Shown: positions 4,821 to 45,354 of the stretch, piece after piece
Position numbering within the stretch: position 1 is the first letter of the stretch
How the letters are laid out: the number at the start of each line of letters is the position of its first letter
Notes under the pieces: model-generated
Seen by the model: only the letters and a program-made list of their open reading frames with translations
What the model was told of the DNA's origin: nothing
Database searches by the model: none
Source: an uncultured Bacteroidales bacterium
GTDB taxonomy: Bacteria; Bacteroidota; Bacteroidia; Bacteroidales; Paludibacteraceae
Assembly (NCBI GenBank): GCA_902780235.1
Contig: CACZEL010000004.1
Location: forward strand, 9,402 to 73,401
Length of the DNA: 64,000 nucleotides
Direction of reading: 5' to 3'
Made by a program: the position numbers and the translations under genes

Positions 4821-4870
4821 TAAATGCAGTTTTTATACTTAATGATTGTTATTCCAATCAAAATCCGCCG

Positions 4871-4902
4871 CAAAAGTACTGCTTTTTTTTGATATATGCA
4901 AG
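4871..4902 (-). promoter_or_regulatory. Promoter for the XRE gene
   Basis: The minus strand reads CTTG-N20-TACTTTTG. Confidence 0.65.
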
Positions 4903-4918: not shown

Positions 4919-4952
4919 TCAGTTGAAAGTTGAAAGTTTAGAGTTTAGAGGT
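4919..4952. repeat. Tandem repeat block
   Basis: AGTTGAA heptamers followed by AGTTTAG heptamers. Confidence 0.85.
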
Positions 4953-9400: not shown

Positions 9401-12400
9401 GCATCACCGGCTTCAGCAGTGCTCGTATTAGCAAATTCTGGCTCCGCCACGCCGTTTTTCAATTTAGCAGGGTAGAATGTTTTCGATTGATATGTACCGA
9501 CACCTTCTACCTGATATACAGTTCTTGTTCCTGCTTCTTCTGCATCCTCATTAAAAATAAACGTACCTGCATCCTCGTTATTAGAGAAGATATTTGCTCC
9601 GCCTGCCGATGTATAAACAAATCCGGTAGCCGTTGTGAAAGTACCACGCACATTGATTGCGGCTGAAGCCGGTTTGGTTTGCTCATTGCGCACATCCGGT
9701 TTGCCCGGAGTAGTTCCACGTCCTTCCCAGCTCGGAGAGTAACGAACGGTCTTGGTGTAAGCCTTATCAGAACGCGTTTTCCACTCATCTGTTTGTTCTA
9801 CGTAGTACACCTCATTGCAATAGGCATACTTATCCCAATCATCCGCATCATAGACATAGAGGGCTCCGGTATGTTCCGCATCATTATTGTCTTTGGCTAC
9901 ACTAACGGTAGATTCTTTATCTACCTCCACTTCTGCTCCCGGAAGCAAATTGGTATTTTGTTTAAAGTCCATCGTTCCGGAAAGCAGATGAATCTTCATA
10001 TTGTTTGTTAGCGGCAAGTCAAAGTTAGCAGAATTAAGGCGTATAACTACCTTACCAAATGATGGTCCCAAATCGACATTACCCATGTCCAACACCATCG
10101 AACCTATATGCGCACCACTATTAATATCATATACCTGTATATCATTCTCTGCATCATACCATTTGCGCACCCATGTATTATCTGCATCGGCTGCAATATC
10201 CATTAAGAAGATGGCCTGATGCTGACCACTCACTCCGACTACCGCTATATCCGTGGCGGCCATAGAGATACTCAACATTGACAAACCTTCAGATACCGCA
10301 GCAGATCCGGAAAGGACAGCTCCGGGATGATACTTGACAGGTGATTCCACATTCTGGATAAAATACTGCGTGACAGGGAAAATCTTATAACCGCTATCAT
10401 CGCTTTTTACTCGATCCCATAAAGCTGCTGATACCTCATCTTGTTTTACCAATCCTGTGATACGCACAGATGTCATTGCTCCTTTCCAGTCACCCATTTG
10501 GAACATCTCTCTAACTTTGGAACCACGACGTGCATCTGTTTCACCCTTACCTGTCATGAATCCCCATGCGCGGAGTTCAGAACCGGATTGCAAAGTCATT
10601 TTACTTCCTTCTTCCATTACCAAATGACCGTAAGGCCCATAGGGTTGAGAGGTATATGCCTCATTGCTGGCAAATTGCGAGCAAGTCATTTCTATTTTAC
10701 CGAACACATCCATATTTACACCGGTAGCAAATGTCAAACGACGGAACTCCGTAGGTTGCACATAAGGTGTTGCGGCATTCACATCATTGAATATCACACG
10801 CGGAGCCGACATATTCACCTCTGTCTGTGTATCACTCATCGGCACTATAATGGTTGCATTGGCAGGGAGTGTGTAATAACCGGCAGGTAACACATAATCA
10901 TTGGTCATAAAAATAACGATACCCGCTACACCCGGGTTATTGTTCGCATACGCCAAGGCGTCTTCCAATTTTGCGTAAGATGTTGTACCGATACGGCAGA
11001 CTCCGACACCATTCGCCGTTGCAGATTCTTTCGTACCCAAGAAATGACGATATCCTTCGTTATACTCTACACCGGCAGAAATCAACAACTCGGTTTTACC
11101 TTCCGTCGAGACTCCATACTCTGTACTTGTAAAGAAACCGGATGTAAAGTCAATCGTACCATTCAACGGAGCACCAAACTTACCGCACTCAACAGTCAAT
11201 GTACCACCCACACGTTGAGCAGAATAGGTTCCACCTGAAATAGCAGCCAATTTTTTCACGGTAGCGGTACCGGCCGTCATTTTCAAACCACAAGTAGTAC
11301 CATTAATCCTACCACGATTGATGGCAGCCGTTCCTCCGTTGATCGTAATCGCCGTTTCTCCGGCAAAGGTTCCGTTGTTAACGATAAGTGTACCATTTGA
11401 AGTCAATCCTCCGGCAATAGAACCTTGAGAAGCCGTCATCGTACCGTTGTTAACTACGGCACCGGTAATGGTAGCACCGTTCTGCTCCGCTACTGCTCCA
11501 TTGGCAATAGATAGCGAAGCAAAAGTTCCGCCATTGAGTATGAGGTTACCTCCGGTTAGGGATAAAGCGCCTCCGTTTCCGCCAAATTGGCTGAATGCGA
11601 TCGTTACCTGACCACCGGAAACCAAAATGCCATTAACCGTATTACCATTCAAATCGAGTGTAATAATCTTGTCGGAGAAGGAAAGTCCTTCGCTTACCGT
11701 CGTGTTGAGCTTCAAAATCGGATTGGTATAACCACTTACATCTACCGCTAATAATTCAGCCAATGTGGTCAGCTCTGTTTCCATCGGAGTATTGCCATCA
11801 AACAAGTAAGCCTCTGCCGGATTCGGATCCAAAGCGTTCACGTTTAATGACACACCTACATTGATAGAGTTCTCGCCTGCTATCTTGAGCGTCATCGTAG
11901 TGTTTTTAACACCATACTCCACATTGGCAGGCACCGTATAGGTAACCGGAATCGTCAATCTCGTTCTTTGCGCTGAAGGCACTGCTCCCGGTGCAGAGAT
12001 AAGTTCACGATTTGCCAAGGCGGTAGCCAGATCATAAGACCAATCAGAGGGATCATTGGAGAATGTAAAGGTAGCAAAATCAGACGCATCTAAAGCTGAC
12101 GCATCTCCTATCACATCCACCGTAACATTAATCGTTACAGTATTTCCCGCCTCAGCCTCCACATTGGCACCTGATGCACTCGCATTGTCAAATGTGTATT
12201 TGGAAAAAAGAGCATTTAAAACGTTAGGTGCAGCACTAACTGTCTGTATCAATTCGTAAAGATTGTATCCATCTGCCTCGTCATCACCGGTAACTGTTTT
12301 CGTATGAGCGCTATTAGGAAGCACCCTATAACAAGGACTCTTCTCGGGAGAATAGATAGCGCATTGGGTGCCGGCACACACGCTCTCATCAGGATAGGGA

Positions 12401-13678: not shown

Positions 13679-13828
13679 TATATTTTTGCGCTCTCGTGCG
13701 CACGGATGTAAGCGGCGCGTATAAAAGCGTCGCAAAGTTACTGCTTTTTTGCGACATACACAAGAGTTTTACGATAAAAATGCAAAAATATATGCTTTTT
13801 GTAAACAAGAGATAGCAAAATCGTAAGA
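13679..13828. repeat. About 150-nt promoter-leader module, copy 2
   Basis: See 809-957. This copy has about 55 extra nt between the module and the ATG, including CTGTTCAATCTGTCTAATCTGTGG. Confidence 0.85.
13733..13764 (-). promoter_or_regulatory. Promoter for the TA operon
   Basis: The minus strand reads CTTG-N20-TAACTTTG, identical to the box at 862-893. Confidence 0.65.
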
Positions 13829-15200: not shown

Positions 15201-15320
15201 TTAGCTGTTAGCCGTTAGCTGTTAGCAATTTGCCGTTAGCCGTTAGCTATTAGCCTAAAAAGCCAATAGCCAATAGCCAATAGCTAAATGCCAATAGCCA
15301 ATAGTTAAAAGCCCAAAGCC
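15201..15320. repeat. Polarity-switching heptamer block (GCTGTTA family)
   Basis: TTAGCTGTTAGCCGTTAGC.. changes at about 15256 to ..GCCAATAGCCAATAGCC.. . It ends 8 nt before the adk ATG. Confidence 0.9.
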
Positions 15321-15328
15321 AAAATATA

Positions 15329-19587: not shown

Positions 19588-19665
19588 TTGGCTATTAGCT
19601 GTTAGCTTTTAGCCGTTAGCAGTTTGCTTTCTGCCAATAGCCAATAGCCAATGGCTAACAGCTAT
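19588..19665. repeat. Polarity-switching heptamer block inside the tRNA-Met leader
   Basis: TTGGCTATTAGCTGTTAGCTTTTAGCCGTTAGC ... GCCAATAGCCAATAGCCAATGGCTAACAGCTAT. The outer 11 nt are perfectly complementary. Confidence 0.9.
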
Positions 19666-19681
19666 TTGTCAAAAGCGGGTG

Positions 19682-19713
19682 CAAAAGTACTGCTTTTTTC
19701 TGACATACGCAAA
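19682..19713 (-). promoter_or_regulatory. Promoter for tRNA-Met
   Basis: The minus strand reads TTTG-N20-TACTTTTG, about 90 nt upstream of the mature 5' end. Confidence 0.65.
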
Positions 19714-19757: not shown

Positions 19758-20705
19758 TCAGGCTACATTGAACTGACTTCCGCCGATAAACTCACGCAGA
19801 ATAGAGGTGCGCGGAATATAAGACGCTTCGAGTCCTTCGAAGAAACTGAGGTAGAAAAGGAGTCGTTTCGCCACCTCATATTCCTTGGAAGAAGCAGGAA
19901 CGGTCTGCAGCGCCACTTCCACCGCATAGCGGATCGCCGGCAGTTCGTACATCATCGAGGTATCGAAGCGGGCATCTGCCTCTTTCTTGAACGGTTCAAT
20001 CCATTTCTTCTCCCCTGCACGCACAGAAGGCCAGTTGGCAATGGTCTGCTGCGGACTCTTGCCACGCGTACGGAAATCGCGACTCATGCGGCGCAGCAGA
20101 CGATGGACGTGCGTCGGGATCCATTTATGTCCGTCCAGCGACACGGGACTCATCGGCGAAGCGAAGATCTTGTACTTACATGCCGGATCGATATGCTCGG
20201 TCAGGATCGGATTGAGCGCATGGATACCTTCGATGACCATGATGGTGTCGGGTTCCAGTCTGAGCGTATCGCCCAAGTACTCCCGTTTCTCTGCCGCAAA
20301 ATTGAAGGTAGGCAACGCGATCTCCTTGCCGTCAATCAGGGCCTTCAGATCCGCCTCCAGTTGTTTGATATCCAATGCATAGACGGACTCGTCATCGCGT
20401 TTACCGTTCTCATCGCGGGGAATGAGTTCGCTATTCAGATACCAGTTATCAAGCGACAGAGCCACCGGCTGTTTGCCTTGCGCCAGCAGTTCGAGGCATA
20501 GTTTATGACTGGTACTCGTTTTTCCGCTCGAAGAAGGTCCGGCAATCAGCACGACACGTACCTCCGGGCGCGAACAGATCTTACGCGCGATACGCGCGAG
20601 CTGGTCATGATGGTACTTCTCTCCCATCGCCACCAGTTCGGCAGCATGACGGGACTCAATCATCTCATTGATATACGCCACACGGCGTTTCTCTCTGTTT
20701 ATCAT
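19758..20705 (-). CDS. Uridine-kinase/PRK-family nucleoside kinase-like protein
   Basis: VVLIAGPSSSGKTSTSHKL P-loop, ..IMVIEGIHALNP.. . The start overlaps the priA stop (ATGA). Confidence 0.7.
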   Translation of the reverse strand: MINREKRRVAYINEMIESRHAAELVAMGEKYHHDQLARIARKICSRPEVRVVLIAGPSSSGKTSTSHKLCLELLAQGKQPVALSLDNWYLNSELIPRDENGKRDDESVYALDIKQLEADLKALIDGKEIALPTFNFAAEKREYLGDTLRLEPDTIMVIEGIHALNPILTEHIDPACKYKIFASPMSPVSLDGHKWIPTHVHRLLRRMSRDFRTRGKSPQQTIANWPSVRAGEKKWIEPFKKEADARFDTSMMYELPAIRYAVEVALQTVPASSKEYEVAKRLLFYLSFFEGLEASYIPRTSILREFIGGSQFNVA

Positions 20706-22681
20706 ATAGGGTCAATATCAATAATAATTTTCACGTTTTTATTCGATGGAACCGACCAAACTTGATCAATCGCTTCCTGCAATCGCCGTTTGGCTTCAGC
20801 CATATTGGCAGTCGATTCAATACGCAGGGTCAGTTCGCGGATATAATAGGCTTGCACGCGTTCCACGGATGGAATAATAACCGCAGAGATGCGCCTACCG
20901 AAGATCTGGGACAGGTAAGCCTGCAACTGCGTCGCCGTGGCATGTGCCAGCGGCTGTTTGGAATGACGCATCTGGATACGAATCATCCGATGAAATGGGG
21001 GATAATGGAACATTTGGCGTTCCGCTAATTGCTGGTTATAGAGCGCGATATAATCATGTTCCCGCACCATCTGCAGCACCTTATTGGAGGGATCAAAAGT
21101 CTGAATCCACACTTCCCCTTTGGTACCTTTGCGTCCTGCCCGACCTGCTACCTGCTCCAGCATCTGGAACGCCCGTTCGTACGCCCGGAAATCGGGTTGG
21201 TTAAAGAGCGGATCGGCATTGAGCACCGCTACCAAGCGTACATCATCAAAATGTAAACCCTTGGTCACCATCTGCGTACCGACTAAGATGTCGCATTCAT
21301 GGTTGGCAAAGGCATTGATGATATCCTGATACGCGGACTTATTCCGCGTGGTATCCAGATCCATACGCAGCACCCGTGCCTCGGGGAAGAGCGTCTGTAT
21401 CTCATCTTCGATGCGTTCGGTACCGATACCGATGGCTTTGAGTTCACCGCCACATTGCGGACAAACGGCTGGTACGGCAGTATGATAACCGCAGTAATGA
21501 CACCGCATCTCCCGCGGATGCAGATGGAGCGTCATCGGCACATCACATTGGACGCAACGAGGCGGTTCGCCGCATTGCATGCACTGGATCTGCGGCGCAT
21601 AGCCGCGTCGGTTCTGAAAGAGAATAACCTGTTTATGATCCGCCAGACATTGCCGTATACGCTCTACGAGCGGATCGGAGAAATGCCCATACATCTCCTT
21701 GCGCTCATACTGCCGCTTAAGGTCAATCAGTTGGATGTCAGGTAACTCGACCCCACCGAAACGTTCGGTAAGGGAAACCAATCCATACACCCCTTTCTGC
21801 GCCAGGTAATACGACTCGATGGAAGGCGTAGCCGTGCCCAAGAGCACTTTGGCCTTATGCAGTTGCGCCAACATGATCGCTGCCGCACGGGCATGATAAC
21901 GAGGATTCGGTTCTGCCTGCTTATAACTGGGTTCATGCTCTTCATCCACGATAACAAGACCGAGATCTTGTATTGGCAAAAAGATTGCACTACGGGCGCC
22001 AATTACTACGTAATTAGTTGAAAGTTGAAAGTTCTGCCGATCTGCTGACGCCGTATGGAAAGTTGAAAGTTTTTTATATCTCACCTCCCGTTCGGCATCG
22101 GTGAAACGGCTGTGATAGACGATGAGCCGATCGCCGAAGATGGTCTGTAGACGAGAGGTGAGTTGGGTAGTCAAAGCGATCTCCGGCACCAGATACAGCA
22201 CGTTCTTGCCCGCCTCCAACTGCGCCTGAATCAGATGAATATATATATCCGTTTTGCCTCCGGACGTCACCCCATGCAGCAGCACGATATCCTTACCCGA
22301 ACGCCAAAAAGTCTCGATTTCATCGGCACTTTTCGCTTGTGCCGGCGATAAGTCATGCATAGGTTCGATAGGACCCGTATAGGGTGCAAGCGCCTTACGT
22401 GCCCGTTTGGGCGGGTCAGTGAGTCGTTTATCCAAACCACCGGGCAAAGCCGCAGCCATCACTTCACCCAAAGAGCACATGTAATAACGGCTCATCCATT
22501 GCCATAAAGCCAACTGCTCCCGCGTAACGACCGGCGCCGTATCGACTACAGACAGGATCGGGCGTATCTTATCGGCAAAAGCCGGTTCGATGGGTTCTGT
22601 ATGTTCGCGCAAAACCACCCCTCGCAGTTCTTTCTTGAGTAGCGGCACGATGACGCGTGTACCCGGCGCAGGTATAGACAA
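20702..22681 (-). CDS. priA: Primosomal protein N' (replication restart helicase PriA)
   Basis: LHGVTSGGKT (Walker A), IVDEEH, a Cys4 cluster (CVQCDVP..CHYCGY..CPQCG), QMVTKGLHF and GRAGR. The conserved N-terminus continues upstream of TTG 22681 to about 22750 with no canonical start codon (see findings). Confidence 0.9.
   Translation of the reverse strand: MSIPAPGTRVIVPLLKKELRGVVLREHTEPIEPAFADKIRPILSVVDTAPVVTREQLALWQWMSRYYMCSLGEVMAAALPGGLDKRLTDPPKRARKALAPYTGPIEPMHDLSPAQAKSADEIETFWRSGKDIVLLHGVTSGGKTDIYIHLIQAQLEAGKNVLYLVPEIALTTQLTSRLQTIFGDRLIVYHSRFTDAEREVRYKKLSTFHTASADRQNFQLSTNYVVIGARSAIFLPIQDLGLVIVDEEHEPSYKQAEPNPRYHARAAAIMLAQLHKAKVLLGTATPSIESYYLAQKGVYGLVSLTERFGGVELPDIQLIDLKRQYERKEMYGHFSDPLVERIRQCLADHKQVILFQNRRGYAPQIQCMQCGEPPRCVQCDVPMTLHLHPREMRCHYCGYHTAVPAVCPQCGGELKAIGIGTERIEDEIQTLFPEARVLRMDLDTTRNKSAYQDIINAFANHECDILVGTQMVTKGLHFDDVRLVAVLNADPLFNQPDFRAYERAFQMLEQVAGRAGRKGTKGEVWIQTFDPSNKVLQMVREHDYIALYNQQLAERQMFHYPPFHRMIRIQMRHSKQPLAHATATQLQAYLSQIFGRRISAVIIPSVERVQAYYIRELTLRIESTANMAEAKRRLQEAIDQVWSVPSNKNVKIIIDIDPI
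22014..22075. repeat. Repeat-core-repeat insertion inside priA, in frame
   Basis: AGTTGAAAGTTGAAAGTT - CTGCCGATCTGCTGACGCCGTATG - GAAAGTTGAAAGTTTTTT. It encodes ..LSTFHTASADRQNFQLSTNY.. . Confidence 0.85.
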
Positions 22682-22742
22682 ACCCTCCGGAACGCTATAG
22701 GTATAACAATCCCGAAGCGCTAAAGGTAATATGATATCAACG

Positions 22743-22786
22743 TAGTTGATAATTGATGATTTCTGATTTATGATTTTTGATTTTCC
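22743..22786. repeat. Tandem block at the tdk/priA junction
   Basis: GTTGATAATTGATGATTTCTGATTTATGATTTTTGATTTTCC (TGATTGA family). It contains the tdk stop. Confidence 0.85.
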
Positions 22787-23367
22787 TCATTAGCCAGTGC
22801 TCTATTGTAGCACTCGCGGCAGAGGGGTTCGTAGCTGTCGGTCTCTCCTAAGAGGACGCGTTTCTCGGAAGCTACCAGACGATGGCTGACATACGCCAGA
22901 TCACCGCATTGCACGCAGATCGCATGGGTCTTGTACACATCATCGGCAATCGCCATAAGGGCCGGCATCGGACCGAAGGGTACACCGCGGAAGTCCATAT
23001 CCAGACCGGCACAGATGACGCGGATACCGCGATCAGCCAGTTGCTTGCATACATCAACGATACCCATATCGAAGAACTGCGCCTCATCGATACCCACTAC
23101 ATCGATATCATCGACCATGAGCAGAATATTCTGACTGCTATCAACAGGTGTCGATTGAATCACATTACGGTCGTGGGAGACGACATCCTCTTCGCTGTAC
23201 CGCACATCGATCGCGGGTTTATAGATCTCCACACGCAGTTTGGCAAACTTAGCGCGTTTCATACGGCGGATGAGTTCTTCGGTCTTACCGCTGAACATCG
23301 ATCCGCATACTACTTCAATCGAACCCTTACGTAAACTCGGGCCTTTGGTGTCTCGTTCGGAAAACAT
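22768..23367 (-). CDS. tdk: Thymidine kinase
   Basis: [23 protein letters not shown] and C-terminal Zn-binding Cys pairs. Track ORF trimmed to ATG 23367, because the upstream part reads through a repeat. Confidence 0.9.
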
Positions 23368-23370
23368 AAA

Positions 23371-23408
23371 ATTATTTACTATTTGGTCATTTACAATTTG
23401 ATCATTTA
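23371..23408. repeat. Tandem block at the AAA/tdk junction
   Basis: ATTATTTACTATTTGGTCATTTACAATTTGATCATTTA. Confidence 0.8.
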
Positions 23409-26400
23409 AGCACCAAAACCGATATGGTTGGAAGGAATCTGTTTCCATTTGATGGAAGTCACATCCTCTTTGGTTATCTCATGCTTCGTCTCCTCTTTCT
23501 GAGCACTCATCCGCAAGTCGGTTGCCGATGTGATGGCCGTATAGAGATGGCGTATGGTGCGTGCATTCGCAAAACCGGTACTGCGATTAGAGCATAGTGT
23601 CCGGATACGTTCCAGCACCTCTTCCGCCGCTTCATCGGTGATCGTATAACCGTTTTTGGAGAGGCGCTGCCGTAAGATCGCCATCAGTTCATCGGCCGTA
23701 TAATCGGCAAAATGCAGCACGGAGGTAGAGAGCGGCATGTCGATCGGCGATTCCGGGAAACGGGTGTCATCCACGGCGATGACGAAGGCATACGAACCCG
23801 GCATCTCTGCTGTGAGCGAGGTCAGTTTGCAGCGCAACCACTGGACATTGATATGACTGTTCGCCACATCGTCCAAGTCAATGAAGAGCAATCCTTGTCC
23901 GGACTGCTTCATGGTGTCGCGCAGGATACGGTCGATATCATACGAGGTCCACGTGCCGTTAGCCGTCTGCGGCATACGCAGTTGCGTCATCCGGTCGGAA
24001 GAAAGCAGATGGAACGCATACAGTATCTGCGCCAAGATGCCGGCTACCGAACTCTTACCCGTTCCTGTCGCACCGGTGAAGGTCCACTGCAGCGGAATCG
24101 TCTCATTCAGGTCCTCCCCTTGCTGTTGCTTGGTGCGCGCCAGCGAGACCATATTATGCAAGGTCTGCTTCACCTGCTCCAGTCCCACCATCTCGTCCAA
24201 CTGCTTGAGCGCCTTGTTCAGTGCGGTTTCATCGACTGCATAATCCGTATTATCCACCGTCACCGGTATATCCGCCGCTTCGATACGCGAGAGCAGTTGG
24301 GGCGAAACGGTACCGCCTTCGAGACCCAAGACACGACAACTCATGTTCGGTATGATCTGCGAAGAGATGAGACGCGTGATGAAGCGGGCGTTACCGAAAT
24401 GCTGACGGCTCTTCTTGGACGTATGCTCCATCTCCCGATGAACGAGTTTGCGCAGTTTCTTCATCGCCTCATCAGAAAGCGTATATCCGCTGCTTTGGGC
24501 AGTAAGAACAGCTATCTCCATCAACTCCTCTTCGGTATAATCTTCGAAATGGAAAGTATAGGGGAAACGGGATTTCAGACCCTTGTTGGAATGCAACATT
24601 TTCTCCATTTCATCGGGATATCCGGCAAGGATGATGATCATGTCCGTGCTCTCTTTACTGAGCTCTTCCAGCAAGCAGTCCAGCACTTTCGGACCAAAAT
24701 CTTTCTTGTCATCCGGATCCGCCACCAGGGTATAGGCCTCGTCGATAAAGAGAATATTCCCATGCGCCTGCTGTAGATAGCGTTTGGTATTGTCTTCGGT
24801 GTCACCGATATATTGTCCGACCAGTTTTTTCCTATCCACCGCAATGACCTGTCCGGTCTTGAGGATGCCAAGCGAAGCGTATATCTCTCCCAACAGGTTA
24901 GCGACGGTCGTCTTGCCCGTTCCCGGATTGCCGGTGAAGATCATATGCAGCGGAGGCATGGTCGCTTTGAGTCCGTTCTGTCGGCGCAGCTGCGCAAAAC
25001 GAACGAGGTTAAGGTGCGACTCAATATTGTATTTGAGTTTCTTCAACCCCACCAGTTCGTTCAGTTTATCCATCGACATCTGGTATCGTCCCACCTGCGG
25101 ATGCGGTACATCTTCGGCCTTGAGTTCACTCAGCATCTCTTTGGTATGGAGCAGTTCGGAAGTATCGTTCACCACACGCATGGACATATTCATGACCATG
25201 GTCTCAATCAGTTTGGTCACAACCGATGTGGTGGCATTCGGTTGTGAAGAAAGGTACGATTTCATCGCAACTTTTGCGTCCTCAGAAAGGATAAAACCAC
25301 CTGCTTTGCACTCCCGTTCGGCGATGTCAATCATCTGATCCAAGTTGAGTGTCGGCAGCCGGTATATCTGCCCGATACAGGCTTCGAGGTTAGCGGTAGC
25401 CAAGAGTTGCGAGATACGTTCCGGCGTGTCCGCCAAGACCACACAGGTATCGTGTCGGTTCTCTTGTATCAGGCGCACCAATGACTCTACCATGGCGTTC
25501 TTGTTCCCACGCGTTTCGGTCGCAATCATCGAGGCGGCATTCTCAATATAGAGCATACCTCCGCCTGCAATACTGAACTCCGACTCCAAAGAGGACATTT
25601 CCGACCATTGTGCGGCATCCTCGACATGCAGTTTGCCATCGGAGATAAACCCGTTCTGCACATAATAATCGAACAAGACCTGGGCGAAAGCCGTTTTACC
25701 AGATCCTTTCTCTCCCATGACAGCCGCATGCAGATTGATCGGCACGGTCACCAAGTTCATCGCCTGACGTTGCTCGTTGAATAGTTTCTGCTGCGTGAGC
25801 GTAGCCATCTGGCTATACACCGAATCCATTCCTACCATCGTCGAATCTACCTTGAGCGACTTCGTCTTGGCCGGAACGACATTGATATACTGAATGACCG
25901 GTTCACCAATATACGAATCCTGCTTCTTCCGCAAGCGGAAAGCCACATAATAGCGTCCGCAATCGAGCGCACGGTTCTCCTTACGAATCACGTCTATCAG
26001 CACATACACCGACTCCGGATTGGAACGGGGAATAACGATATCTATCTCATGATCAACGGGATGCAGTTTAACAATATCACCTGTCGGATCCCGATAAAAG
26101 AAAAAGAACTCGAGGGTGCAAGGGGTGTCTTTTTTCTCTGCCTCAAAGAGCATCAGATACCGCACTCCTTTGCCTTTGGCTTGCGGATAAGAGGCCACTT
26201 CGGGGACATTATCATCTTCCTTGTAGCAGTATTTCAAACCCGTGGCATAGATGATCCCGTCCTCATCAAATCGGCCGGAGGGACCACCCCATTCCATCTT
26301 ATGCTCAAACTCAATCTTACTGATCTGCTCGATGATCTGCACGTCATCCCAGGGTTCATAGAAAGCCTCATCGAGCGTCCGATCTGCATCGCTGTCTTGC

Positions 26401-26483
26401 GGGGTATCGGAAAGGCACAGATCGATCTCTATCTCCTCATCCGTCTGTTTACGGAAAAACAATTTACTGTATATATCGTTCAT
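23406..26483 (-). CDS. Large AAA+ ATPase with three CbxX/SpoVK-like ATPase modules (1025 aa)
   Basis: Three P-loops: [32 protein letters not shown] (followed by LFIDEAYTL) and [16 protein letters not shown] (followed by LFIDLDD). The N-terminal domain of about 230 aa is unrecognised. Confidence 0.8.
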
Positions 26484-30518: not shown

Positions 30519-30564
30519 AGTTGAAAGGTGAAAGTTGAAAGTTGAAAGAAGGTGAAAGGTAAAA
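30519..30564. repeat. Heptamer block in the topA leader
   Basis: AGTTGAAAGGTGAAAGTTGAAAGTTGAAAGAAGGTGAAAGGTAAAA. Confidence 0.9.
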
Positions 30565-32907: not shown

Positions 32908-32939
32908 TTTGGTCAATTCAAAAAAAAGCAGTACTTTTG
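32908..32939 (+). promoter_or_regulatory. Promoter about 210 nt upstream of tRNA-Pro
   Basis: TTTG-N20-TACTTTTG. Confidence 0.6.
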
Positions 32940-33151
32940 CACCCGCTTTCGATGGAAAGCCTCTGGTTTGATGGATTTTCAACAGCGAGAATTCACGCAG
33001 AGAGGAGATTGTTTTAAGGAGTAAAGGAGGGCTGGGTTCCCTGCTTTATGACTATCAAAACAACGAACTCTCAAGGGATTCCGAGGAGATTTGCGGAGCA
33101 AATTCGAGAAAATTTTGCTCGGCAAAATAATCGAAGCGAACTGAAAGTGAG

Positions 33152-38032: not shown

Positions 38033-39961
38033 TCATTTGACCCAACGCATGCAGAGCGGCGGAATCGTGACCGCCATCAGCAGAACGATGGCCATGCCGA
38101 TGAGGGTGACCGCACCCAACGAATGCATGGCGGGATGCACTGCGAAGATAAGGATTCCAATACCAATCAACATAATTAGCGCCGACAAAAGGATCGATTG
38201 CCGATATTGCGGCAGGATCTGTTTGCCGGTTCTTCGTTCGTACAGAAGCCCTTCCACAATGAAGATGGTATAGTCGTCTCCTTGCCCGAAAATGAAGGTA
38301 GCAAGGATGATATTGACTATGTTAAACTGCAAGTGGCAGAGTTGCATGATAGCCAGTATCCAAACCCAACTCAGCGCCATCGGCAGGAAAGCGATGAGCG
38401 CCAAAGAGAAACGCTTGAACGCCAGCCACAGGAAGACGAAGACGATGAGCGAGCAGACGAGACCGATATAATCGAACTCCGCGCTGAGACGCTCGGCAAC
38501 CTTGGACATGAGGGAGCTGACGCTATTGGCTATTGGCTCTTGGCTATTAGCTCTTAGTTTCTCATAGAACGGTTCGAAAGCATCTGGACGAAAACCGACG
38601 GCTTCGGCTTCTTCGCGGATGAGGGATATGAGCTCTTGGCTGTTGGCTATTGCAGGTCTGACCTGGCTATTGGCTATGGGCTCTTGACTATTGGCTATTG
38701 GCTCGAAGAGGGCCATGTCGGCGCGTTGCTCGTCGGTCATGAAGTTGATATGCGTCAAGTTGGCATCAAACCGGTCTTGCGGACGAAACCAGAGATACAA
38801 TCCTCCGATAAGAGTAAGGGCGAGAATAGTCCATTGACTGACAGCTATTAGCTTTTGGCTCTTGGCTATTGGCTTGATTTTGATCTCTCTTATCGGCGTG
38901 GGTTCGGCGGACATGAGATGAGGCAGAACGAAGACGCAGAAGAGGATCGTTCCGACCAACATGGCAGCCGCAAAGATACCGAGGTGACGGAGGGCGGTGG
39001 CATGCATGGGGATAAGCGCCATGAACGCACCGACGGTCGTGATATTGCCTACGATAAGGGGTGAGAGTACTTCATCCAATGTTTGCCGCACGGAGGTCGT
39101 ATAGCGCTGATGTACAAGCAGATGCAGCGGGTAATTGACGGCGATACCGATCAGGACACTACCGATACCCAGCACAACGGCGGAGACGGTAGGCGTGACG
39201 ATATGTAAGACGGCCATACCCATTAACCAACCGACAGAAACCGACAAGAGGATGAGCCACCAGTCTCTGCGACGCGGGAAAGCGTAAGCAAGAAGCAAGA
39301 TGATCAATACCGCCGAAAGAGAGATACAAAGGAGCGTGTCGGTCTTGATTCGACGTGCGTTACCTACGGCAATCACAGGACCTCCCGTCCAGCGTATCAG
39401 CAGATTCGGATAAAGAAGCGCCACCTCGTTCGTGATAGCCGTCAGCGAATCCACGAGAGCCGCGTTTTGCTTGGTTTCCGTACTGCCATATGGAGAATCG
39501 ATATACGCAAAGCTTTTATTAGTTGAAAGTTGAAAGTTGAAAGTTGAAAGGTCGATTAAACCCAAGGGATCTTGTTGGATGAGGGGGGCTAAGGCTGAAC
39601 CGCCGGGCGTAGAGAGGATGGCTTTATCGCGTAAGAGGGCGGCATGAACTGCTTCGCGCGTAAGGAGAGAATCGGGAATGTTGAAAGGTGAAAGGTGAAA
39701 GGTGAAAGGTGAAAGGTCGGATAAGGTGAAAGTGGATAGTGGATAGTGGATAGTGGAAAGACGATCTTCGATCGTATAGAGGGCATCTTCCCGTTCGTAC
39801 TCCTCTTCACCCTCGATGATCAGCACGATGCGCGCAGCCGATTGCTGGGCTTGCAGGCTGTCGATGGCTTGGCGCTCCTCCGCAGTGATCGGCAGAAAAT
39901 CCATGATGTCTTCGTCGTAACGCAAAGTAGCAGCCAAAGCGATGAGGATGCTCATCACCAC
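38033..39961 (-). CDS. MMPL/RND-like exporter (ApeM-like)
   Basis: Two clusters of TM helices. The conserved N-terminus (..ILLHIYDFFASHRAWLWIG..) lies upstream of GTG 39961 with no canonical start codon. Five repeat insertions are present. Confidence 0.7.
   Translation of the reverse strand: MVMSILIALAATLRYDEDIMDFLPITAEERQAIDSLQAQQSAARIVLIIEGEEEYEREDALYTIEDRLSTIHYPLSTFTLSDLSPFTFHLSPFNIPDSLLTREAVHAALLRDKAILSTPGGSALAPLIQQDPLGLIDLSTFNFQLSTNKSFAYIDSPYGSTETKQNAALVDSLTAITNEVALLYPNLLIRWTGGPVIAVGNARRIKTDTLLCISLSAVLIILLLAYAFPRRRDWWLILLSVSVGWLMGMAVLHIVTPTVSAVVLGIGSVLIGIAVNYPLHLLVHQRYTTSVRQTLDEVLSPLIVGNITTVGAFMALIPMHATALRHLGIFAAAMLVGTILFCVFVLPHLMSAEPTPIREIKIKPIAKSQKLIAVSQWTILALTLIGGLYLWFRPQDRFDANLTHINFMTDEQRADMALFEPIANSQEPIANSQVRPAIANSQELISLIREEAEAVGFRPDAFEPFYEKLRANSQEPIANSVSSLMSKVAERLSAEFDYIGLVCSLIVFVFLWLAFKRFSLALIAFLPMALSWVWILAIMQLCHLQFNIVNIILATFIFGQGDDYTIFIVEGLLYERRTGKQILPQYRQSILLSALIMLIGIGILIFAVHPAMHSLGAVTLIGMAIVLLMAVTIPPLCMRWVK
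38522..38557. repeat. In-frame heptamer block in the exporter
   Basis: GCTATTGGCTATTGGCTCTTGGCTATTAGCTCTTAG encodes ..RANSQEPIANS.. . Confidence 0.9.
38631..38705. repeat. In-frame repeat-core-repeat block in the exporter
   Basis: ..CTCTTGGCTGTTGGCTATTGC-AGGTCTGACCT-GGCTATTGGCTATGGGCTCTTGACTATTGGCTATTGGCTC encodes EPIANSQEPIANSQVRPAIANSQEL. Confidence 0.9.
38841..38875. repeat. In-frame heptamer block in the exporter
   Basis: ACAGCTATTAGCTTTTGGCTCTTGGCTATTGGCTT encodes ..KPIAKSQKLIAVS.. . Confidence 0.85.
39521..39552. repeat. In-frame heptamer block in the exporter
   Basis: AGTTGAA x4 encodes ..LSTFNFQLSTN.. . Confidence 0.9.
39680..39760. repeat. In-frame compound block in the exporter
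   Basis: GAAAGGT x5 followed by GGATAGT x3 encodes ..STIHYPLSTFTLSDLSPFTFHLSPFN.. . Confidence 0.9.
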
Positions 39962-40024
39962 AGCGCACCCGATCCACAGCCAAGCGCGGTGGGAGGCAAA
40001 GAAATCGTAAATATGTAATAAGAT

Positions 40025-40056
40025 AGTTTTCAGTGGTCAGTATTCAGTTTTCAGCG
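40025..40056. repeat. Block at the ligase/exporter junction
   Basis: AGTTTTCAGTGGTCAGTATTCAGTTTTCAGCG. Confidence 0.8.
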
Positions 40057-41373
40057 TTCGTCTATAAACTTAACGGGTTTACGACTTTTGGCAGGGAAAT
40101 TGATCTGCTGGATCACATCGGCAGGTAGAATCTCGACGATAGGCGCCACACGCAGACGCGAACGGAAATGGTCCTTGAGTTGTTTGATCGCTTCCTCGGG
40201 TTGGATGCTCTTATCGCGCAGGCTGATACGAACGATGACTTCGTCGGTACCGGCATCTGAATGACGCACTACCACCACATAATTGCCGACAAAAAGGGTG
40301 TTATCCAGCACATCATTGATAGCCGGCGGATAGATGGTCGTTCCTTTCAGTTTGATCATGTTATGTTTCCGTCCGATGAGCGGCGTAAGACGATACGAGT
40401 TCCGTCCGCATGCGCAAGGATCGGTCACCTTAGCCGCTATGTCACCTGTACGGAAACGGATAAGCGGCATGCCTTCTACGCCAAGGGTTGTGATGACGAT
40501 CTCTCCGGGTTGACCGTCCGGAACGGGTTGGTCATCCTCTCCGATGATCTCCACGATGATCAGTTCGGGGTGTACATGCCCGCCGCACGCGTGCTCACAC
40601 TCAGAGAAAGTAGCGGACATCTCGGTGGACGAATACGTAGCGTAGAGTTCCACTTCCGGCCATTTGTCATGGATCCGCTGACCGAGCAGGTTGAGGTTAA
40701 ACTGCTGATCGCGCAGTCCTTCACCGATACCGATGATCTTACGAATCGACGAATGGCGATAATCGATGTTATGCTGCTCAGCGTACTCGATGAGACGCAG
40801 GATGAAAGATGGCACGCACATGATGGCCGTCGGGTGCAGACGTTGGATCGTGTCCCACTGCAGTTCGGGGATACCGTTCCCCACACGAATGATGCTCGCG
40901 CCCATGCGACGGATACCCATCCAGTAAGCGAGACCCGCCATGAAACGTTTGTCCATCGTGGTCATGAGTTGAAGGATATCGCCTTTGTGTAAGCCGGCGC
41001 AAGCAAAGGACTTATGCTCGTTGTACGCCAAACGCTGCAGGTCCGATTCGGTACAACCGAACAAGACGGGTTCGCCGAGCGTACCCGACGTAGTGATATA
41101 ATCAATGATCTCCTCTTTGGGCACGCACAAAAAATCATCGTTGAAACGTTGCAAGTCCGCTTTCTCGGTGAAAGGCAGTCGCTGCAAATCCTCGATGGTG
41201 CGTATGGACGCAGGATCGATATGCTGCTCGGCAAACATCCGCTGGTAATAGGGCGAGTGTTCGGCTACATACGCGATCTGTTTGGTTAACGCTACTTCTT
41301 GAAAGTCGCGAATACGTTCTATTGATTCAAATTCGATATCCATTGTAGAAATTCGTTTTTCCATTGTCTGCAT
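40051..41373 (-). CDS. Phenylacetate-CoA ligase / coenzyme F390 synthetase family adenylating enzyme (ApeH-like)
   Basis: ..ITTSGTLGEPV.. (AMP motif), ..YSSTE.., ..FRTGD.. . Confidence 0.8.
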   Translation of the reverse strand: MQTMEKRISTMDIEFESIERIRDFQEVALTKQIAYVAEHSPYYQRMFAEQHIDPASIRTIEDLQRLPFTEKADLQRFNDDFLCVPKEEIIDYITTSGTLGEPVLFGCTESDLQRLAYNEHKSFACAGLHKGDILQLMTTMDKRFMAGLAYWMGIRRMGASIIRVGNGIPELQWDTIQRLHPTAIMCVPSFILRLIEYAEQHNIDYRHSSIRKIIGIGEGLRDQQFNLNLLGQRIHDKWPEVELYATYSSTEMSATFSECEHACGGHVHPELIIVEIIGEDDQPVPDGQPGEIVITTLGVEGMPLIRFRTGDIAAKVTDPCACGRNSYRLTPLIGRKHNMIKLKGTTIYPPAINDVLDNTLFVGNYVVVVRHSDAGTDEVIVRISLRDKSIQPEEAIKQLKDHFRSRLRVAPIVEILPADVIQQINFPAKSRKPVKFIDER

Positions 41374-42143
41374 TCTTCTGTTCCTTTAACCTCTGACGCA
41401 CCGAATCCATGTCCGCCGGTTTGGTACTGGATATACACATGCGGTACGGCATGGGCAGTAAGCGCGGAGTCGAGTAACTCAGAGTTCTGATATTTGACGA
41501 TCGGGTCATCCTGACAGTTGATCAGGAAGACCGGCGGACAATCGTCCGGTATATGTTTCTCGATCGAGAGCGAGTCCCGTTTGGTGCGGTTAAACTGTCC
41601 CCACACGCCCAAAGCGCCACGACGCGAGCGATGATGGGTGTATTTCTTATGACTCATCGTCACGACCGGATAGACAGGGCAGAGGAAAGAGGGTTTGTAT
41701 TCCGTTCGGTTATGGGTATAGGACATCATCGTGAGATGCCCTCCGGCCGAGAAACCCATCACGCCTATGCGCGCGCGATCAATATGTAAGGAGTCGGCAA
41801 GGGTATAGACATACTGCAGTGCCTGCTCGACATCCGTAAGCATATTGGGGTATTTATTGCCCAAACCGATGACGCGGTAGCCGATACAGAAGGCGCTGAT
41901 GTTCGCCACCCGGTACTTGAGCACGAAAGCATGGATACCTTGACTGCTCAACCACTCCGCCACTTCGCGTCCCTCGTGCTCCATGTCATGCCAGCAGTAA
42001 CTTCCACCCGGACAGACGATGATCGCCATACCTGTGTTACGCGTACTATCGGCGGGATAATACGTAAGACGTTGGCTTTTGGCTGTTAGCTGTTGGCAAA
42101 CGGCTATTAGCAGGAGAAGTATCAGTATTCGAAATCTTCGCAT
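41319..42143 (-). CDS. Secreted alpha/beta hydrolase (esterase/lipase-like)
   Basis: Signal-like MRRFRILILLLLIAV and nucleophile elbow GFSAGGH. Start set to ATG 42143. Confidence 0.75.
   Translation of the reverse strand: MRRFRILILLLLIAVCQQLTAKSQRLTYYPADSTRNTGMAIIVCPGGSYCWHDMEHEGREVAEWLSSQGIHAFVLKYRVANISAFCIGYRVIGLGNKYPNMLTDVEQALQYVYTLADSLHIDRARIGVMGFSAGGHLTMMSYTHNRTEYKPSFLCPVYPVVTMSHKKYTHHRSRRGALGVWGQFNRTKRDSLSIEKHIPDDCPPVFLINCQDDPIVKYQNSELLDSALTAHAVPHVYIQYQTGGHGFGASEVKGTEECRQWKNEFLQWISNLNQ
42071..42111. repeat. In-frame heptamer block in the hydrolase signal-peptide region
   Basis: GTTGGCTTTTGGCTGTTAGCTGTTGGCAAACGGCTATTAGC encodes ..LLIAVCQQLTAKSQRL.. . Confidence 0.85.
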
Positions 42144-44638
42144 AGGGCTTGAACTGTTTGTTGAGCGGTCATGACGACACCGCATAGACCGTGTAAGAAA
42201 ATATTCTGTCCCGAGAGATAGAATCCCTTGAGGCGGGTTCGCACCGATCCGACGGATTCGGACATACCGAACATCGCTCCTTCGGGCGAGAGATAATCAT
42301 CCCGATAGGTGAGCGAAGTGGAGGAGAAGATATCCTCCATCTGCGTCCGTATATCGGGGTAAATTTGTTCGATGAGATCGAGGGTTTTCTGCTCCTGAGT
42401 ATGCTTGAACGCTTCGTAAGCCGCATAGTCGTTCTTGCGGTTCTCATGCCAAGGTGCCAACTCATTATAATCGAGCGGCATGACCGTTTCAATCGTGCGT
42501 GCAAACGACTGATTCTTGGTCGCACAAGGCGTCATGACGAGAAGGTTGTGCTTCGGCATAAAATGTGTGACCGGATCGTAAGGCAGCGTATCGGGTTTGA
42601 GCCGGATATAGGTCTTGAACGAACCCAAGGTCTCCGGAGTAGAAAGGATACGATTGCGGGCGATGGTGCGGAAAAGCGGCAAGTCAGTCAGCCTCAGCAG
42701 TTGCTTGGGATGAAGAGTCGAGACGACCGTATCGAATTGATGATTGATAATTGATGATTGATGATTTGTGATTTGGAATTTGTCTCCTTCTCCCTTTAAG
42801 CCACTCACCTTTTGACCTGTCAAGATACGACCACCGTGGCGGGTGATGAAGAGGGCGAGATCATCGGCAAGTTGTTGCGAACCGCCCACAAAACGGTATA
42901 TACCTTGGTCACATTGCGCCCATTCGGCTTCGCCGATGAGCGATGCCGGCGCATGATCAACCGAAGTAGGCACGATGTTTGCTTCGATACCTAACGACTG
43001 CAGCACGTGCGTCACTGCCCCTTCCGGATGCAGACCGGAGAGGATATGCATGCCGGTGAGCCAGGTCTCGCCGTTGCGTTCATACGAATAGAGTCCGCCG
43101 CCATAAACAGGCAGTTGTTCGAATAGCGTCACCAGATAACCTTTTTGCGCCAAGAGAGCACCGCAAAAAAGCCCGGAAACACCGGCACCAAGGATAGCTA
43201 CAGAACGTCGGTTGGAATGCAGCAAGGCATCATAATGCATCTCCAGCGATTTGGTTTGTTTCTTATAGTTACGCCCGAAAGAAGCATCGTCGCAGGAAAT
43301 AGGAGGCAGGATATGCATGACGACATGCGCCGGCTTGAGAGCAAACTGCTTGCGCGAGATATAATCGCAAAGGCCCTCCAAAAGCAGAGGTTGGATCGGC
43401 AGATGAAGCAACCGCGCATAATAGGCTGCCCCACGATGGAAACGCCCGATCTCACCGGTCGCGGTACGTGTACCTTCGGGGAAAAGCATGATCGAGTACC
43501 CTTCTTCGGTCACCCGACGGATGAGCGTCTCTTTGGCAGCATCGTCCATGGAGAGCGGGAAGCAGTCCAACTTACGCGCCACGACATGGAAAATCGGGTT
43601 GTACCAGATATAATCTTTAACCATGATCGCCACCTTCGCCGTCTGCGAGAGGATGAGCATGATGTCAATATGCGACTGATGGTTGGCGATAATCACCGAC
43701 GGTTGGGCTCCCAATTCGATTTGATAGGGATTATCGATCGTGTAATGCAAGCCGGCCAAGAGACGACAGTAATGGTTCGCCAGACGCTGCATACGTCGGC
43801 GATAGATGGCCCTACTCCGCGCGTTCTCACCATGGATAGCGAAATAGATCAGCGTATAAGGCGTGACGCCAAACAGCATCGTCAAACCGAAATAGGCGAA
43901 GCAAACGACCGTACGCCAATACATATTGATATAGCCGAACAGCAAGGCACCGAGGCACAGGAAGCAGTTGAGGATCGAGATACGCGTGAAATCCCGAACC
44001 GGCCGAAAATGACTGACCCGCTGCTCCTTAGGCGGATAATAGACCCGAATAGGAACCGGTATCAAAGGCACGTTATGCCATGCGGCGAAAACGAGCAGTT
44101 CCAGTTCCGCTTCGTACCGGCTGGTAAGCAGAGGCAGACCGTACAATTGATGCAAAGGATAGATACGCATGCCCGTCTGGGTGTCCGGCAGATTGATCGT
44201 CGTTTGCAAACGGAACCAGAAATTCGAGAACCGGTTGGCAAACTTACTCTTACCCGACATGTTCTCATCCGTAAACTGCCGGCTACCGACGATGATCGCT
44301 TCGCGATGCAGATCCAGCGCACGCAGCATGAGGGGTATATCTTCGGGATAATGCTGTCCGTCGGCATCGATGGTCAGGGCATGGGTAAAACCCATCTCGA
44401 GCGCTTTATAAAAACCCGAAACGAGTGCTTTGCCTTTGCCTTGGTTACGCGTATGAGAGACGATGGTGACCGGAAAATCAAGCGTACCTAACAAAGCCAA
44501 GGTATCGTCTGTGCAACCGTCATCCACGACGATGATATCGCGTACCTGCTGATGCACGCGACGAACGACGTCAAGGATCGTACCGGCGTTATTGAAGGTC
44601 GGTATCAGGACACATATATGTGACGATGAAGGACGCAT
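42122..44638 (-). CDS. Three-domain fusion: GT2 glycosyltransferase, LPLAT (PlsC-like) acyltransferase and FAD-dependent (CrtI-like) oxidoreductase
   Basis: N-terminus ICVLIPTFNNAG..VVDDGCTDDT..DADGQH. Middle ANHQSHIDI (HX4D) and FPEGTRT. C-terminus VAILGAGVSGLFCGALLAQKGYLVTLFEQ..YGGG (Rossmann). Confidence 0.8.
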   Translation of the reverse strand: MRPSSSHICVLIPTFNNAGTILDVVRRVHQQVRDIIVVDDGCTDDTLALLGTLDFPVTIVSHTRNQGKGKALVSGFYKALEMGFTHALTIDADGQHYPEDIPLMLRALDLHREAIIVGSRQFTDENMSGKSKFANRFSNFWFRLQTTINLPDTQTGMRIYPLHQLYGLPLLTSRYEAELELLVFAAWHNVPLIPVPIRVYYPPKEQRVSHFRPVRDFTRISILNCFLCLGALLFGYINMYWRTVVCFAYFGLTMLFGVTPYTLIYFAIHGENARSRAIYRRRMQRLANHYCRLLAGLHYTIDNPYQIELGAQPSVIIANHQSHIDIMLILSQTAKVAIMVKDYIWYNPIFHVVARKLDCFPLSMDDAAKETLIRRVTEEGYSIMLFPEGTRTATGEIGRFHRGAAYYARLLHLPIQPLLLEGLCDYISRKQFALKPAHVVMHILPPISCDDASFGRNYKKQTKSLEMHYDALLHSNRRSVAILGAGVSGLFCGALLAQKGYLVTLFEQLPVYGGGLYSYERNGETWLTGMHILSGLHPEGAVTHVLQSLGIEANIVPTSVDHAPASLIGEAEWAQCDQGIYRFVGGSQQLADDLALFITRHGGRILTGQKVSGLKGEGDKFQITNHQSSIINHQFDTVVSTLHPKQLLRLTDLPLFRTIARNRILSTPETLGSFKTYIRLKPDTLPYDPVTHFMPKHNLLVMTPCATKNQSFARTIETVMPLDYNELAPWHENRKNDYAAYEAFKHTQEQKTLDLIEQIYPDIRTQMEDIFSSTSLTYRDDYLSPEGAMFGMSESVGSVRTRLKGFYLSGQNIFLHGLCGVVMTAQQTVQALCEDFEY
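42736..42776. repeat. In-frame block in the oxidoreductase domain
   Basis: ATTGATGATTGATAATTGATGATTGATGATTTGTGATTTGG encodes ..FQITNHQSSIINHQF.. . Confidence 0.9.
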
Positions 44639-44960: not shown

Positions 44961-45354
44961 TCTTAAATTCAATAATCGTGGTATCTCCGTTTTTTTCTAT
45001 CATCTCCACGCGCTGAGCGGCATGGGTTTTATCGTCCATGGTAACATTCACCGAACGAAAGAGTTTTTGGGACTCCCGCTGCATCCGTTCATCCTGCGTA
45101 TTCTCACCTGCAATAGATGCCATGATCATGCGCAAGAGACGCTGTACCTGCGGATTGACATTCGATTGTTTACCGTCTATCTCCCACACCAACGCCTGCG
45201 GCGAAGTATATTCCCATCGCATGTACTCCGGCGCACGGTAAGAGAGGTGGCCGGTGGATACCTGCGGTTCATTCATCAACGCTACTTGCTTCGTTTGCAC
45301 GAAATCCGCTTCCAGCGAAACGATGAGCGACAATATGAGTCCCAAAATATTCAT
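44944..45354 (-). CDS. LolA-like lipoprotein-carrier fold protein (ApeL-like)
   Basis: ..ADFVQTKQVALMNEP..GHLSY.AP..MRWEY.. . Short N-terminus. Confidence 0.6.
   Translation of the reverse strand: MNILGLILSLIVSLEADFVQTKQVALMNEPQVSTGHLSYRAPEYMRWEYTSPQALVWEIDGKQSNVNPQVQRLLRMIMASIAGENTQDERMQRESQKLFRSVNVTMDDKTHAAQRVEMIEKNGDTTIIEFKNVTVK

Follow-up and report, generated by a model that had tools for sequence, protein, structure and literature searches.

An in-frame heptanucleotide repeat with a 24-nucleotide interruption in the PriA loop of a Paludibacteraceae bacterium, and its possible copying between genes

The DNA analysed here is a stretch of 64,000 nt (hereafter the window) of contig CACZEL010000004.1, assembly GCA_902780235.1, from an uncultured Bacteroidales bacterium of the family Paludibacteraceae, which encodes the replication-restart helicase PriA on its minus strand. 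Judging by the names given to near-identical proteins, this is a rumen organism. Within priA lies an in-frame heptanucleotide simple-sequence repeat, (CTTTCAA)4.3, that is split by a 24-nt in-frame interruption, the core. As judged from related strains, this core behaves as a portable unit, since it is cleanly present or absent and an identical copy occurs in a second gene of sister strains. We consider it probable, at roughly 0.6, that the repeat occupies a tolerant loop of PriA and that its interruption is copied and erased between identical arrays by short-homology gene conversion. Below, alleles with the core are called filled and those lacking it empty.

The interrupted array in priA

In the list of open reading frames (ORFs) the priA gene covers positions 20702-22681 on the minus strand, starts with TTG and encodes 659 amino acids. 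A first-pass annotation had placed a repeat-core-repeat of 62 nt at 22014-22075; the sequence is present as quoted, and its actual span is 22016-22075, i.e. 60 nt (18 + 24 + 18). The 14-mer GAAAGTTGAAAGTT occurs exactly at 22020-22033 and 22058-22071, with starts 38 nt apart. The proposed in-frame reading was confirmed, as the minus strand of the 659-residue ORF reads through the feature as ..YKKLSTFHTASADRQNFQLSTNYVVIGARSA... On the coding strand the order is AAAAAA CTTTCAA CTTTC, the core, and then AA CTTTCAA CTTTCAA CT AAT TAC. When the core is taken out, 4.3 perfect CTTTCAA units remain and the flanks are in phase by an exact-periodicity test; Tandem Repeats Finder (TRF) reports a period of 7 with 100% matches at 22016-22033.

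The cassette that recurs in other genes and strains measures 57 nt (22013-22069, minus strand), consists of CTTTCAACTTTC, the core and AACTTTCAACTTTCAACTAAT, and encodes LSTF-HTASADRQ-NFQLSTN, residues 205-223. It is composed of 12 nt of array forming the N-terminal half (22058-22069, minus strand; 1.7 CTTTCAA units, LSTF), the 24-nt core or 'rider' (22034-22057, minus strand; CATACGGCGTCAGCAGATCGGCAG, HTASADRQ, residues 209-216) and 21 nt of array forming the C-terminal half (22013-22033, minus strand; 2.6 CTTTCAA units plus AAT, NFQLSTN). The element contains no inverted repeat or terminal inverted repeats, and the core has no recognisable recombination-site features. The cassette forms no stable hairpin, with a minimum free energy of -2.6 kcal/mol and a fold z-score of -0.12, which is no better than shuffles. 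A reading of the core as three decayed heptamer units was rejected: the central 15 nt of the homologous core in locus L081 (see below) match the array at 2/15 bases, and the conservation of cores between lineages also contradicts such decay.

The PriA protein and its loop

The ORF encodes the complete PriA domain set, comprising the 3' DNA-binding domain, two superfamily 2 (SF2) helicase lobes, the Cys-rich zinc ribbon and the C-terminal domain, with Pfam matches to PF17764 (3'BD), PF00270/PF04851 (DEAD/ResIII), PF18319 (Zn-ribbon CRR), PF00271 (Helicase_C) and PF18074 (PriA_C), all above their cut-offs. The solved PriA structures 4NL4, 6DGD and 8FAK match the window protein with E-values of about 1e-97 to 1e-99. 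Sequence alignment showed that the Walker A motif GxGKT (G137-T144) and the DEEH motif (D246-H249) are intact and invariant, and the interrupted array lies between these two motifs. Extra sequence in a normally short loop had been proposed from the sequence alone, and this was borne out: between ..ER and VVxGxRS the window protein has 26 residues, as compared to 14 in about 45 other Bacteroidia PriA proteins. These length controls, which include a scan of GTDB representatives, consist of one close relative (79%) and otherwise distant PriA proteins, and they served for loop length and not for presence or absence of the core. In a HMMER alignment to Klebsiella PriA (4NL4), 13 gap positions open opposite the loop.

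An AlphaFold2 model with a moderate mean predicted local distance difference test (pLDDT) score of 64.8, used only for secondary structure and disorder near the loop, has a helix at residues 195-207, a coil at 208-224 and the strand VVIG at 225-228, with pLDDT below 50 at 210-221. According to this model the extra residues are predicted to occupy a disordered surface loop of helicase lobe 1. They are probably tolerated there, and the loop may well be functionally neutral.

Both ends of priA also show differences between strains or unusual features. At the 5' end (22682-22789, minus strand), an (AAATCAN)n array at 22752-22783 enters conserved N-terminal codons (..NYVDIILPLALRDCYTYSVPEG). These conserved codons continue in frame upstream to about 22786, and neither they nor the whole interval between the upstream stop at 22787-22789 and the TTG at 22681 contain an ATG, GTG or TTG; PriA of sister strains begins with MSGLIDIILP... 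At the other end, the stop of priA and the start of the PRK-family kinase gene that follows it overlap (20702-20708); locus L088 has a 42-nt spacer there instead (11956-11995).

Filled and empty priA alleles in relatives

In two independent assemblies that are about 94.5% identical to the window over a 14-kb region aligned around priA (L088 and L089), the gene reads AAAAAA(CTTTCAA)4CTAATTAC, which is the window sequence minus exactly 24 nt. The total number of CTTTCAA units is equal, 4.3 in these empty genes vs flanks of 1.7 + 2.6 in the filled window gene, and comparison of filled and empty priA revealed no extra array copy and no junction microhomology. The GAAAGTTGAAAGTT flanks are therefore not a target-site duplication. 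In this respect the first-pass annotation, which had taken the direct copies for a duplication generated at insertion, was mistaken, since the flanks are parts of an existing heptamer array. Slippage deletion was considered as a source of the empty alleles and rejected: such deletions would measure 24 + 7k nt, the frame is kept only for k = 0, 3 or 6, and k = 3 would leave 1.3 units where 4.3 are observed.

Within the clade of at least 79% PriA identity the loop is usually 18 residues long and likewise encoded by heptamers, as in ITNHQSPITNN, which is (AATCACC)4, ISNVQSPISNN and LSTFNYQLSTN. The variants P0065 and P0022 possess pure-array loops that are longer by 7 residues, or three units (25 aa vs 18 aa), and the array type at the loop can differ among genes that are at least 95% identical. 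Between the priA genes of L090 and L084, 30 of about 88 differences fall in two 60-nt bins at the loop, within a stretch of ~65-100 nt that includes a few flanking codons, a pattern that fits short-tract allele replacement. Three-unit (21-nt, 7-aa) slippage and such replacement between strains are further ways in which the PriA loop changes.

Homologous cores are found in two other PriA lineages. The L081 core reads CAT GGC TCT GCC GAT CGA CAG (HGSADRQ, 21 nt) and lies between AAATCAC units, while the L083 core encodes HTFRSFSAGDK (33 nt) and lies between CTATCAA units. The flanks are in phase in L083 by the exact-periodicity test and in L081, where the flanking units are imperfect, by inspection. 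Both cores are located between units 2 and 3, and both have empty counterparts that match them in unit type and number. The window and L081 cores share five codons with three differences, all of them synonymous. A loop of like length and sequence in relatives that lack junction repeats would have spoken against the first-pass annotation, and on this point the outcome is mixed: relatives with a homologous core (L081 and L083) do have junction repeats, made of a different unit, and most relatives have the 18-residue pure-array loop. In an unrelated lineage, Bacteroidia bacterium MS499-65 (L022, PriA 45% identical), the same PriA loop holds an independent in-phase array-core-array at about 10500-10560 of the locus, namely AATTACG AATTACA AATTACG, 21 nt (AAACAACGTTCGGCGGTAGCC) and AATTACG; this locus is heptamer-rich as well.

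Outgroup Paludibacteraceae PriA proteins read ..VLNHSAGQVVVG (L005) and ..VLNHGPGRLVVG (L004) at the loop. Their turns NHSAGQ and NHGPGR resemble NH-HGSADRQ, SAGDK and SADRQ, a likeness that weakly suggests that the core may ultimately derive from the native turn of PriA.

The core at a second and a third site

A second site surfaced only when 90%-cluster members of genes neighbouring priA were compared. In the window, the MMPL-like ORF (38033-39955) contains an empty sister array at 39518-39550 (minus strand), (CTTTCAA)4CTAAT or LSTFNFQLSTN, which has the orientation and frame of the priA array and matches the empty array in L088 priA at 33/33 positions. In three independent assemblies that are 96.8% identical to the window over 22 kb (L093, L094 and L095), the MMPL-like gene carries the 57-nt cassette in the same frame, with 57/57 identity to the cassette in window priA, which is also that of priA in L101. 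At the protein level this corresponds to ..LIDLSTFNFQLSTNKSF.. in the window vs ..LIDLSTFHTASADRQNFQLSTNKSF.. in P0210, P0213, P0219 and P0246. The flanks of the indel differ at 0-2 positions per 100 nt over four 100-nt bins upstream and two immediately downstream, and this near-identity indicates that the event is recent and local and does not reflect import of a diverged allele.

A single contig, ERZ28653687 scaffold_327, carries filled alleles of both priA and the MMPL-like gene; their cassettes have the same orientation, lie 17,487 nt apart and are 57/57 identical. The two copies share the array arms of 12 and 21 nt, their identity stops at the array ends, and the flanks beyond the arrays are unrelated. 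Across variants, priA is filled in 23/25 and the MMPL-like site in 3/13. The idea, raised in the first-pass annotation, that the core might be a mobile unit gains support from its clean presence or absence and from the identical copy in a second gene of sister strains. Within the 64-kb window the core occurs only once with up to three mismatches allowed.

The third site is another array of the MMPL-like gene (38844-38874, minus strand; KPIAKSQKLIA in the window), at which other lineages have QIKN-(H/Q)HGSADRK-KSKITN. Here P0348 and P0362 are filled, with QIKN(H/Q)HGSADRKKSKITN, whereas P0357 is empty (QIKNQKSKITN), 7 aa shorter and 97.2% identical to P0362. The third-site cassette resembles the L081 priA cassette ITNHHGSADRQKSQITN. 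Clean filled and empty alleles thus occur at three sites. The core was not found elsewhere in 1.65 Mb of related loci (11-mers) or in IMG/VR. Likewise, searches with 15-mers and 2 mismatches, of the window for its own core and of the L022 and L081 loci for theirs, revealed no local template or donor.

Heptamer arrays across the window

With up to two mismatches, GAAAGTTGAAAGTT has 22 matches in the window vs 0.39 expected. The CTTTCAA unit forms seven exact arrays, the two priA halves included, and arrays of this unit recur, always without the core, at no fewer than six further places of the window. By TRF, the 64 kb contain about 42 arrays of heptamers as well as some with 8- and 10-mer units. 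The heptamer arrays amount to 0.66/kb, whereas the 58 comparison loci poorest in repeats have about 0.02, and their density in the window is about 30 times that of other Bacteroidia loci. Outside long ORFs the array density is 17.8 per 10 kb vs 2.7 inside, with an intragenic density about 70 times that of other Bacteroidia loci.

Fourteen heptamer arrays lie well inside long ORFs and in frame, and those checked against Pfam are spanned by domain matches. The ORFs so checked encode an Rce1-like protease, two ketosynthases, a GT2-acyltransferase-oxidase fusion, an O-methyltransferase and the MMPL-like protein. In the Rce1-like ORF the unit AGCCAAT would yield TAG in one frame; every third unit is altered to GAG or CAG, which results in a 21-nt period and an open ORF, and these stop-avoiding alterations argue that the arrays are translated. 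The gene (60855-61832, plus strand) encodes a CPBP protease, and its arrays at 61359-61483 and 61663-61721 correspond to a 41-aa QLIANSQELRANSQ.. insert within PF02517 and a second insert of 20 aa, inside or next to this domain. Array lengths are polymorphic among strains: there is a 21-nt (3-unit) difference at 28215 between the window and L088, relatives of ORF 47684-48148 have 7 additional amino acids, and most indels between the window and L093 fall in arrays.

Other arrays, with GAAAGTT or mixed GAAAGTT/GAAAGGT units and listed without strand, are found in intergenic DNA at 4921-4938 (GAAAGTT), just upstream of topA at 30519-30548 (mixed; a 17-nt difference between the window and L093), and in frame in a FabA/ApeI-like ORF at 44645-44674 (mixed; SFNFHLSTFN). 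A 30-nt mixed array in intergenic DNA at 53136-53165, with the same alternation of the two units, is 30/30 identical to the one at 44645-44674, on the other strand, and this pair suggests that arrays are copied as units. A larger mobile element that carries the array was rejected, as the flanks of the GAAAGTT arrays share only a few bases.

Further repeats and neighbouring genes

Tandem arrays with units of 7, 8 or 10 nt are found in nearly every intergenic region of the window and belong to a few families, AGCCAAT/TTAGCCG, GATTAGG, GAAAGTT/GAAAGGT, TCAAACC and CATTTTCT; examples are at 961-1001, 15201-15322, 19591-19652, 58416-58530, 61359-61721, 62532-62660 and 63419-64000. An aryl-polyene-type cluster at 38033-53111 comprises genes for ApeI/FabA-like, LolA-like and MMPL-like proteins, two ketosynthases, a GT2-acyltransferase-amine oxidase fusion and an O-methyltransferase; the relative L093 also encodes an ApeP-like protein and an acyl carrier protein (ACP). 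Most genes of this cluster hold in-frame heptamer stretches, the type and length of which vary among 97%-identical strains, for example ANSQ in the window at 47168-47186 vs (CCTTTCA)3.7 in L093. Arrays of (CTTTCAA)4-5, again of about four units, are also present in five IMG/VR viral contigs (L096-L100) in three contexts.

A separate dispersed intergenic motif, GCAAAAGTACTGCTTTTTT, has the look of a terminator or promoter and occurs at 4870-4892, 19672-19699 and 32918-32949. The window contains a 39-nt exact repeat at 860-898 and 13731-13769, and a 43-nt exact repeat (58753-58795 and 59841-59883) is common to the adjacent 362-aa ORFs 58515-59603 and 59600-60688, which are probably tandem paralogues. 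A gene for a 1025-aa AAA+ protein (23406-26483 of the window, minus strand) separates recJ from tdk; L088, L089 and L101 share it, whereas L081-L086 and L090 do not have it at that position.

Proposed mechanism and alternative explanations

We infer from the comparison of alleles that an array at one locus would be repaired or copied from an identical array elsewhere, by non-allelic gene conversion or template switching, with the array halves of 12 and 21 nt acting as homology arms. A core present in the donor would be inserted into the recipient, whereas a core present in the recipient would be erased by an empty donor. Clean gain and loss without duplication, in-phase flanks, equal unit totals and an identity limited to the arrays would all be expected, because an array is copied from an identical array. 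Diverged cores are present in the PriA of distant lineages, and within one species the MMPL and priA copies are identical; the priA copy is therefore probably the older one and the MMPL copy recent. The interruption may also protect priA: a one-unit slip in a 4.3-unit array would cause a frameshift, and the core would break this frameshift-prone array into 1.7 and 2.6 units, too short to slip.

Several observations weigh against such conversion between identical arrays. The arms of only 12 and 21 nt are short for RecA-type conversion, and across lineages homologous cores lie between different unit types (CTTTCAA, AAATCAC and CTATCAA), which simple identical-array conversion does not explain. 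In a scan of JGI metagenome contigs the exact core was found in only one priA contig, and the copies and eligible arrays described are those of metagenome assemblies. Direction and mechanism are deduced by comparison only, and both a neutral loop and a stabilising effect of the interruption are suppositions.

The main alternative to array-templated conversion is an enzyme-driven process, in which a dedicated trans-acting recombinase or nuclease recognises heptamer arrays and moves the 21-24-nt rider, and perhaps four-unit arrays, site-specifically. It would account for insertion always between units 2 and 3, at three sites and in three unit types, for clean events without microhomology, for arms that are very short for homologous recombination, and for identical four-unit arrays at unlinked coding, non-coding and viral-contig sites. 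We nevertheless regard it as unlikely, as no candidate enzyme was identified or found linked, only two or three sites are known, the core lacks features of a recombination site and array-templated conversion predicts all the same observations. Somewhat more credible, though still doubtful, is the explanation that the core is a relic of the native turn of PriA with arrays grown on both sides of it, the empty alleles being deletions and the MMPL-like copies secondary or unrelated. The turns of the L005 and L004 outgroup proteins, the synonymous-only differences between lineages and the presence of cores in three PriA lineages agree with such an origin. Independent growth on two sides, however, gives in-phase flanks only 1 time in 7, and slippage deletions would also remove units and mostly shift the frame, whereas three filled/empty pairs agree in their unit totals; nor can this explanation account for the third site or for an identical cassette in another gene. 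As the ultimate origin of the rider, a native turn is compatible with conversion between arrays.

An adaptive, diversifying PriA surface, for example for escape from phages or partner proteins, with the core peptide kept for its function, could be suspected from the extreme allele diversity at a loop in a protein that is otherwise 95-99% identical, from the short-tract allele replacement, and from the synonymous-only core differences and the high share of filled priA variants. It appears improbable given that similar variation occurs at arrays in unrelated genes (ketosynthase, MMPL-like and a small ORF), that the peptide is also found in a transporter-like protein, that close relatives with empty or other array types are viable, and that the loop is predicted to be disordered. 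We find it very hard to credit that the core is a small transposable insertion that on integration duplicated its target site, GAAAGTTGAAAGTT. Direct 14-nt repeats do surround a unique core that is found at more than one locus, but the empty sites at priA and the MMPL-like gene hold the full array with the same unit total and nothing is duplicated; inverted termini and secondary structure are lacking, 24 nt cannot encode anything, and the core-free CTTTCAA arrays elsewhere in the window point the same way. The chance of an assembly or sequencing artefact across short repeats, a general concern with metagenome assemblies, is negligible. The 57-nt cassette is shorter than the reads and than the assembly k-mers (k141 contigs), more than 20 PriA protein variants from independent assemblies carry the same loop, which argues against an artefact, and filled MMPL alleles were recovered in three independent assemblies and empty priA in two.

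Implications

Tentatively, these data could point to an undescribed form of loop remodelling in rumen Paludibacteraceae, in which cassettes of about four units (30-33 nt) are seeded in frame in many genes and a 21-24-nt rider (..SADRQ/K..) hops between such cassettes in unlinked genes, either through array-templated micro-conversion or through the action of a dedicated enzyme. If true, no smaller mobile coding module would be known, and the hosts of the rider would include essential genes such as priA. Bacterial heptanucleotide repeats have been treated as intergenic sequences of unknown role; here they are translated within conserved enzymes, including a replication-restart helicase, and constitute the main source of indel differences between strains. 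Copying and erasing of a 24-nt coding piece over 17 kb between identical arrays would demonstrate that dispersed micro-repeats can provide the homology by which short coding segments pass from one gene to an unrelated one. Such array-guided transfer would be a route to loop diversification and at the same time a source of frameshift risk in essential genes. For annotation, a warning follows: loops of this kind uncouple the gene tree from the local sequence, and arrays can remove start codons, of which the 5' end of priA is an example.

Comparison with known systems

The closest described repeats are the bacterial heptanucleotide long simple-sequence repeats (LSSR; Mrazek et al. 2007, summarised in PMC4679880 and PMC4692102) and the cyanobacterial short tandemly repeated repetitive sequences (STRR). 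Known heptamers include GGGAATC in Xanthomonas and Nostoc, and TAACTGA in Beggiatoaceae, cyanobacteria and some Bacteroidetes including Paludibacter propionicigenes. The literature places such repeats between genes, with under-representation in coding DNA (PMC4692102, PMC4679880), and about four units is the preferred length in Xanthomonas and Nostoc (Rehm et al., PMC4692102). Similar to these, the arrays described here are tandem 7-nt units, with one unit at many loci, a copy number that varies between strains, a preference for about four units, and possibly an enrichment in intergenic DNA beside starts and stops. Unlike LSSR and STRR, many of the window arrays form in-frame parts of conserved enzymes, PriA among them, several families of unit occur side by side, and one array type has a portable 21-24-nt interruption. 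Our literature search found nothing on in-frame heptamer arrays in Paludibacteraceae, PriA loop insertions or a shared interruption.

Rickettsia palindromic elements (RPEs), on which Ogata and co-workers reported in 2000, are said to be selfish DNA that resides in frame in protein-coding genes. They measure 100-150 nt, are palindromic and form hairpins. Like RPEs, the present module is repeated, extends exposed surface segments of conserved proteins in frame but does not destroy these proteins, and varies in presence among close relatives. It differs in being a 30-33-nt tandem array with or without an unstructured core of 21-24 nt, in a cassette of 57 nt, and in seeming to spread via array homology.

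Gene conversion of mini-cassettes from pilS to pilE in Neisseria offers a parallel for the transfer itself. In both cases a short coding segment would be transferred non-reciprocally, guided by short flanking repeats and with the wider flanks untouched, although here this is deduced from sequence. Unlike pilS and pilE, the priA/MMPL-like case involves neither silent donor loci nor a known initiator, the partners are ordinary expressed genes, and heptamer arrays of 12 and 21 nt make up the arms; evidence of a selected antigenic function is also lacking here.

Finally, interruptions are known to stabilise expandable microsatellites, for example AGG in the CGG tracts of FMR1. Similarly, the priA array is a pure array split by a non-repeat interruption, which by analogy should lower slippage, and pure and interrupted alleles coexist in the population. 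In contrast to interrupted microsatellites, the interruption is not a variant unit but a segment of 21-24 nt, and it is shared between unlinked loci.

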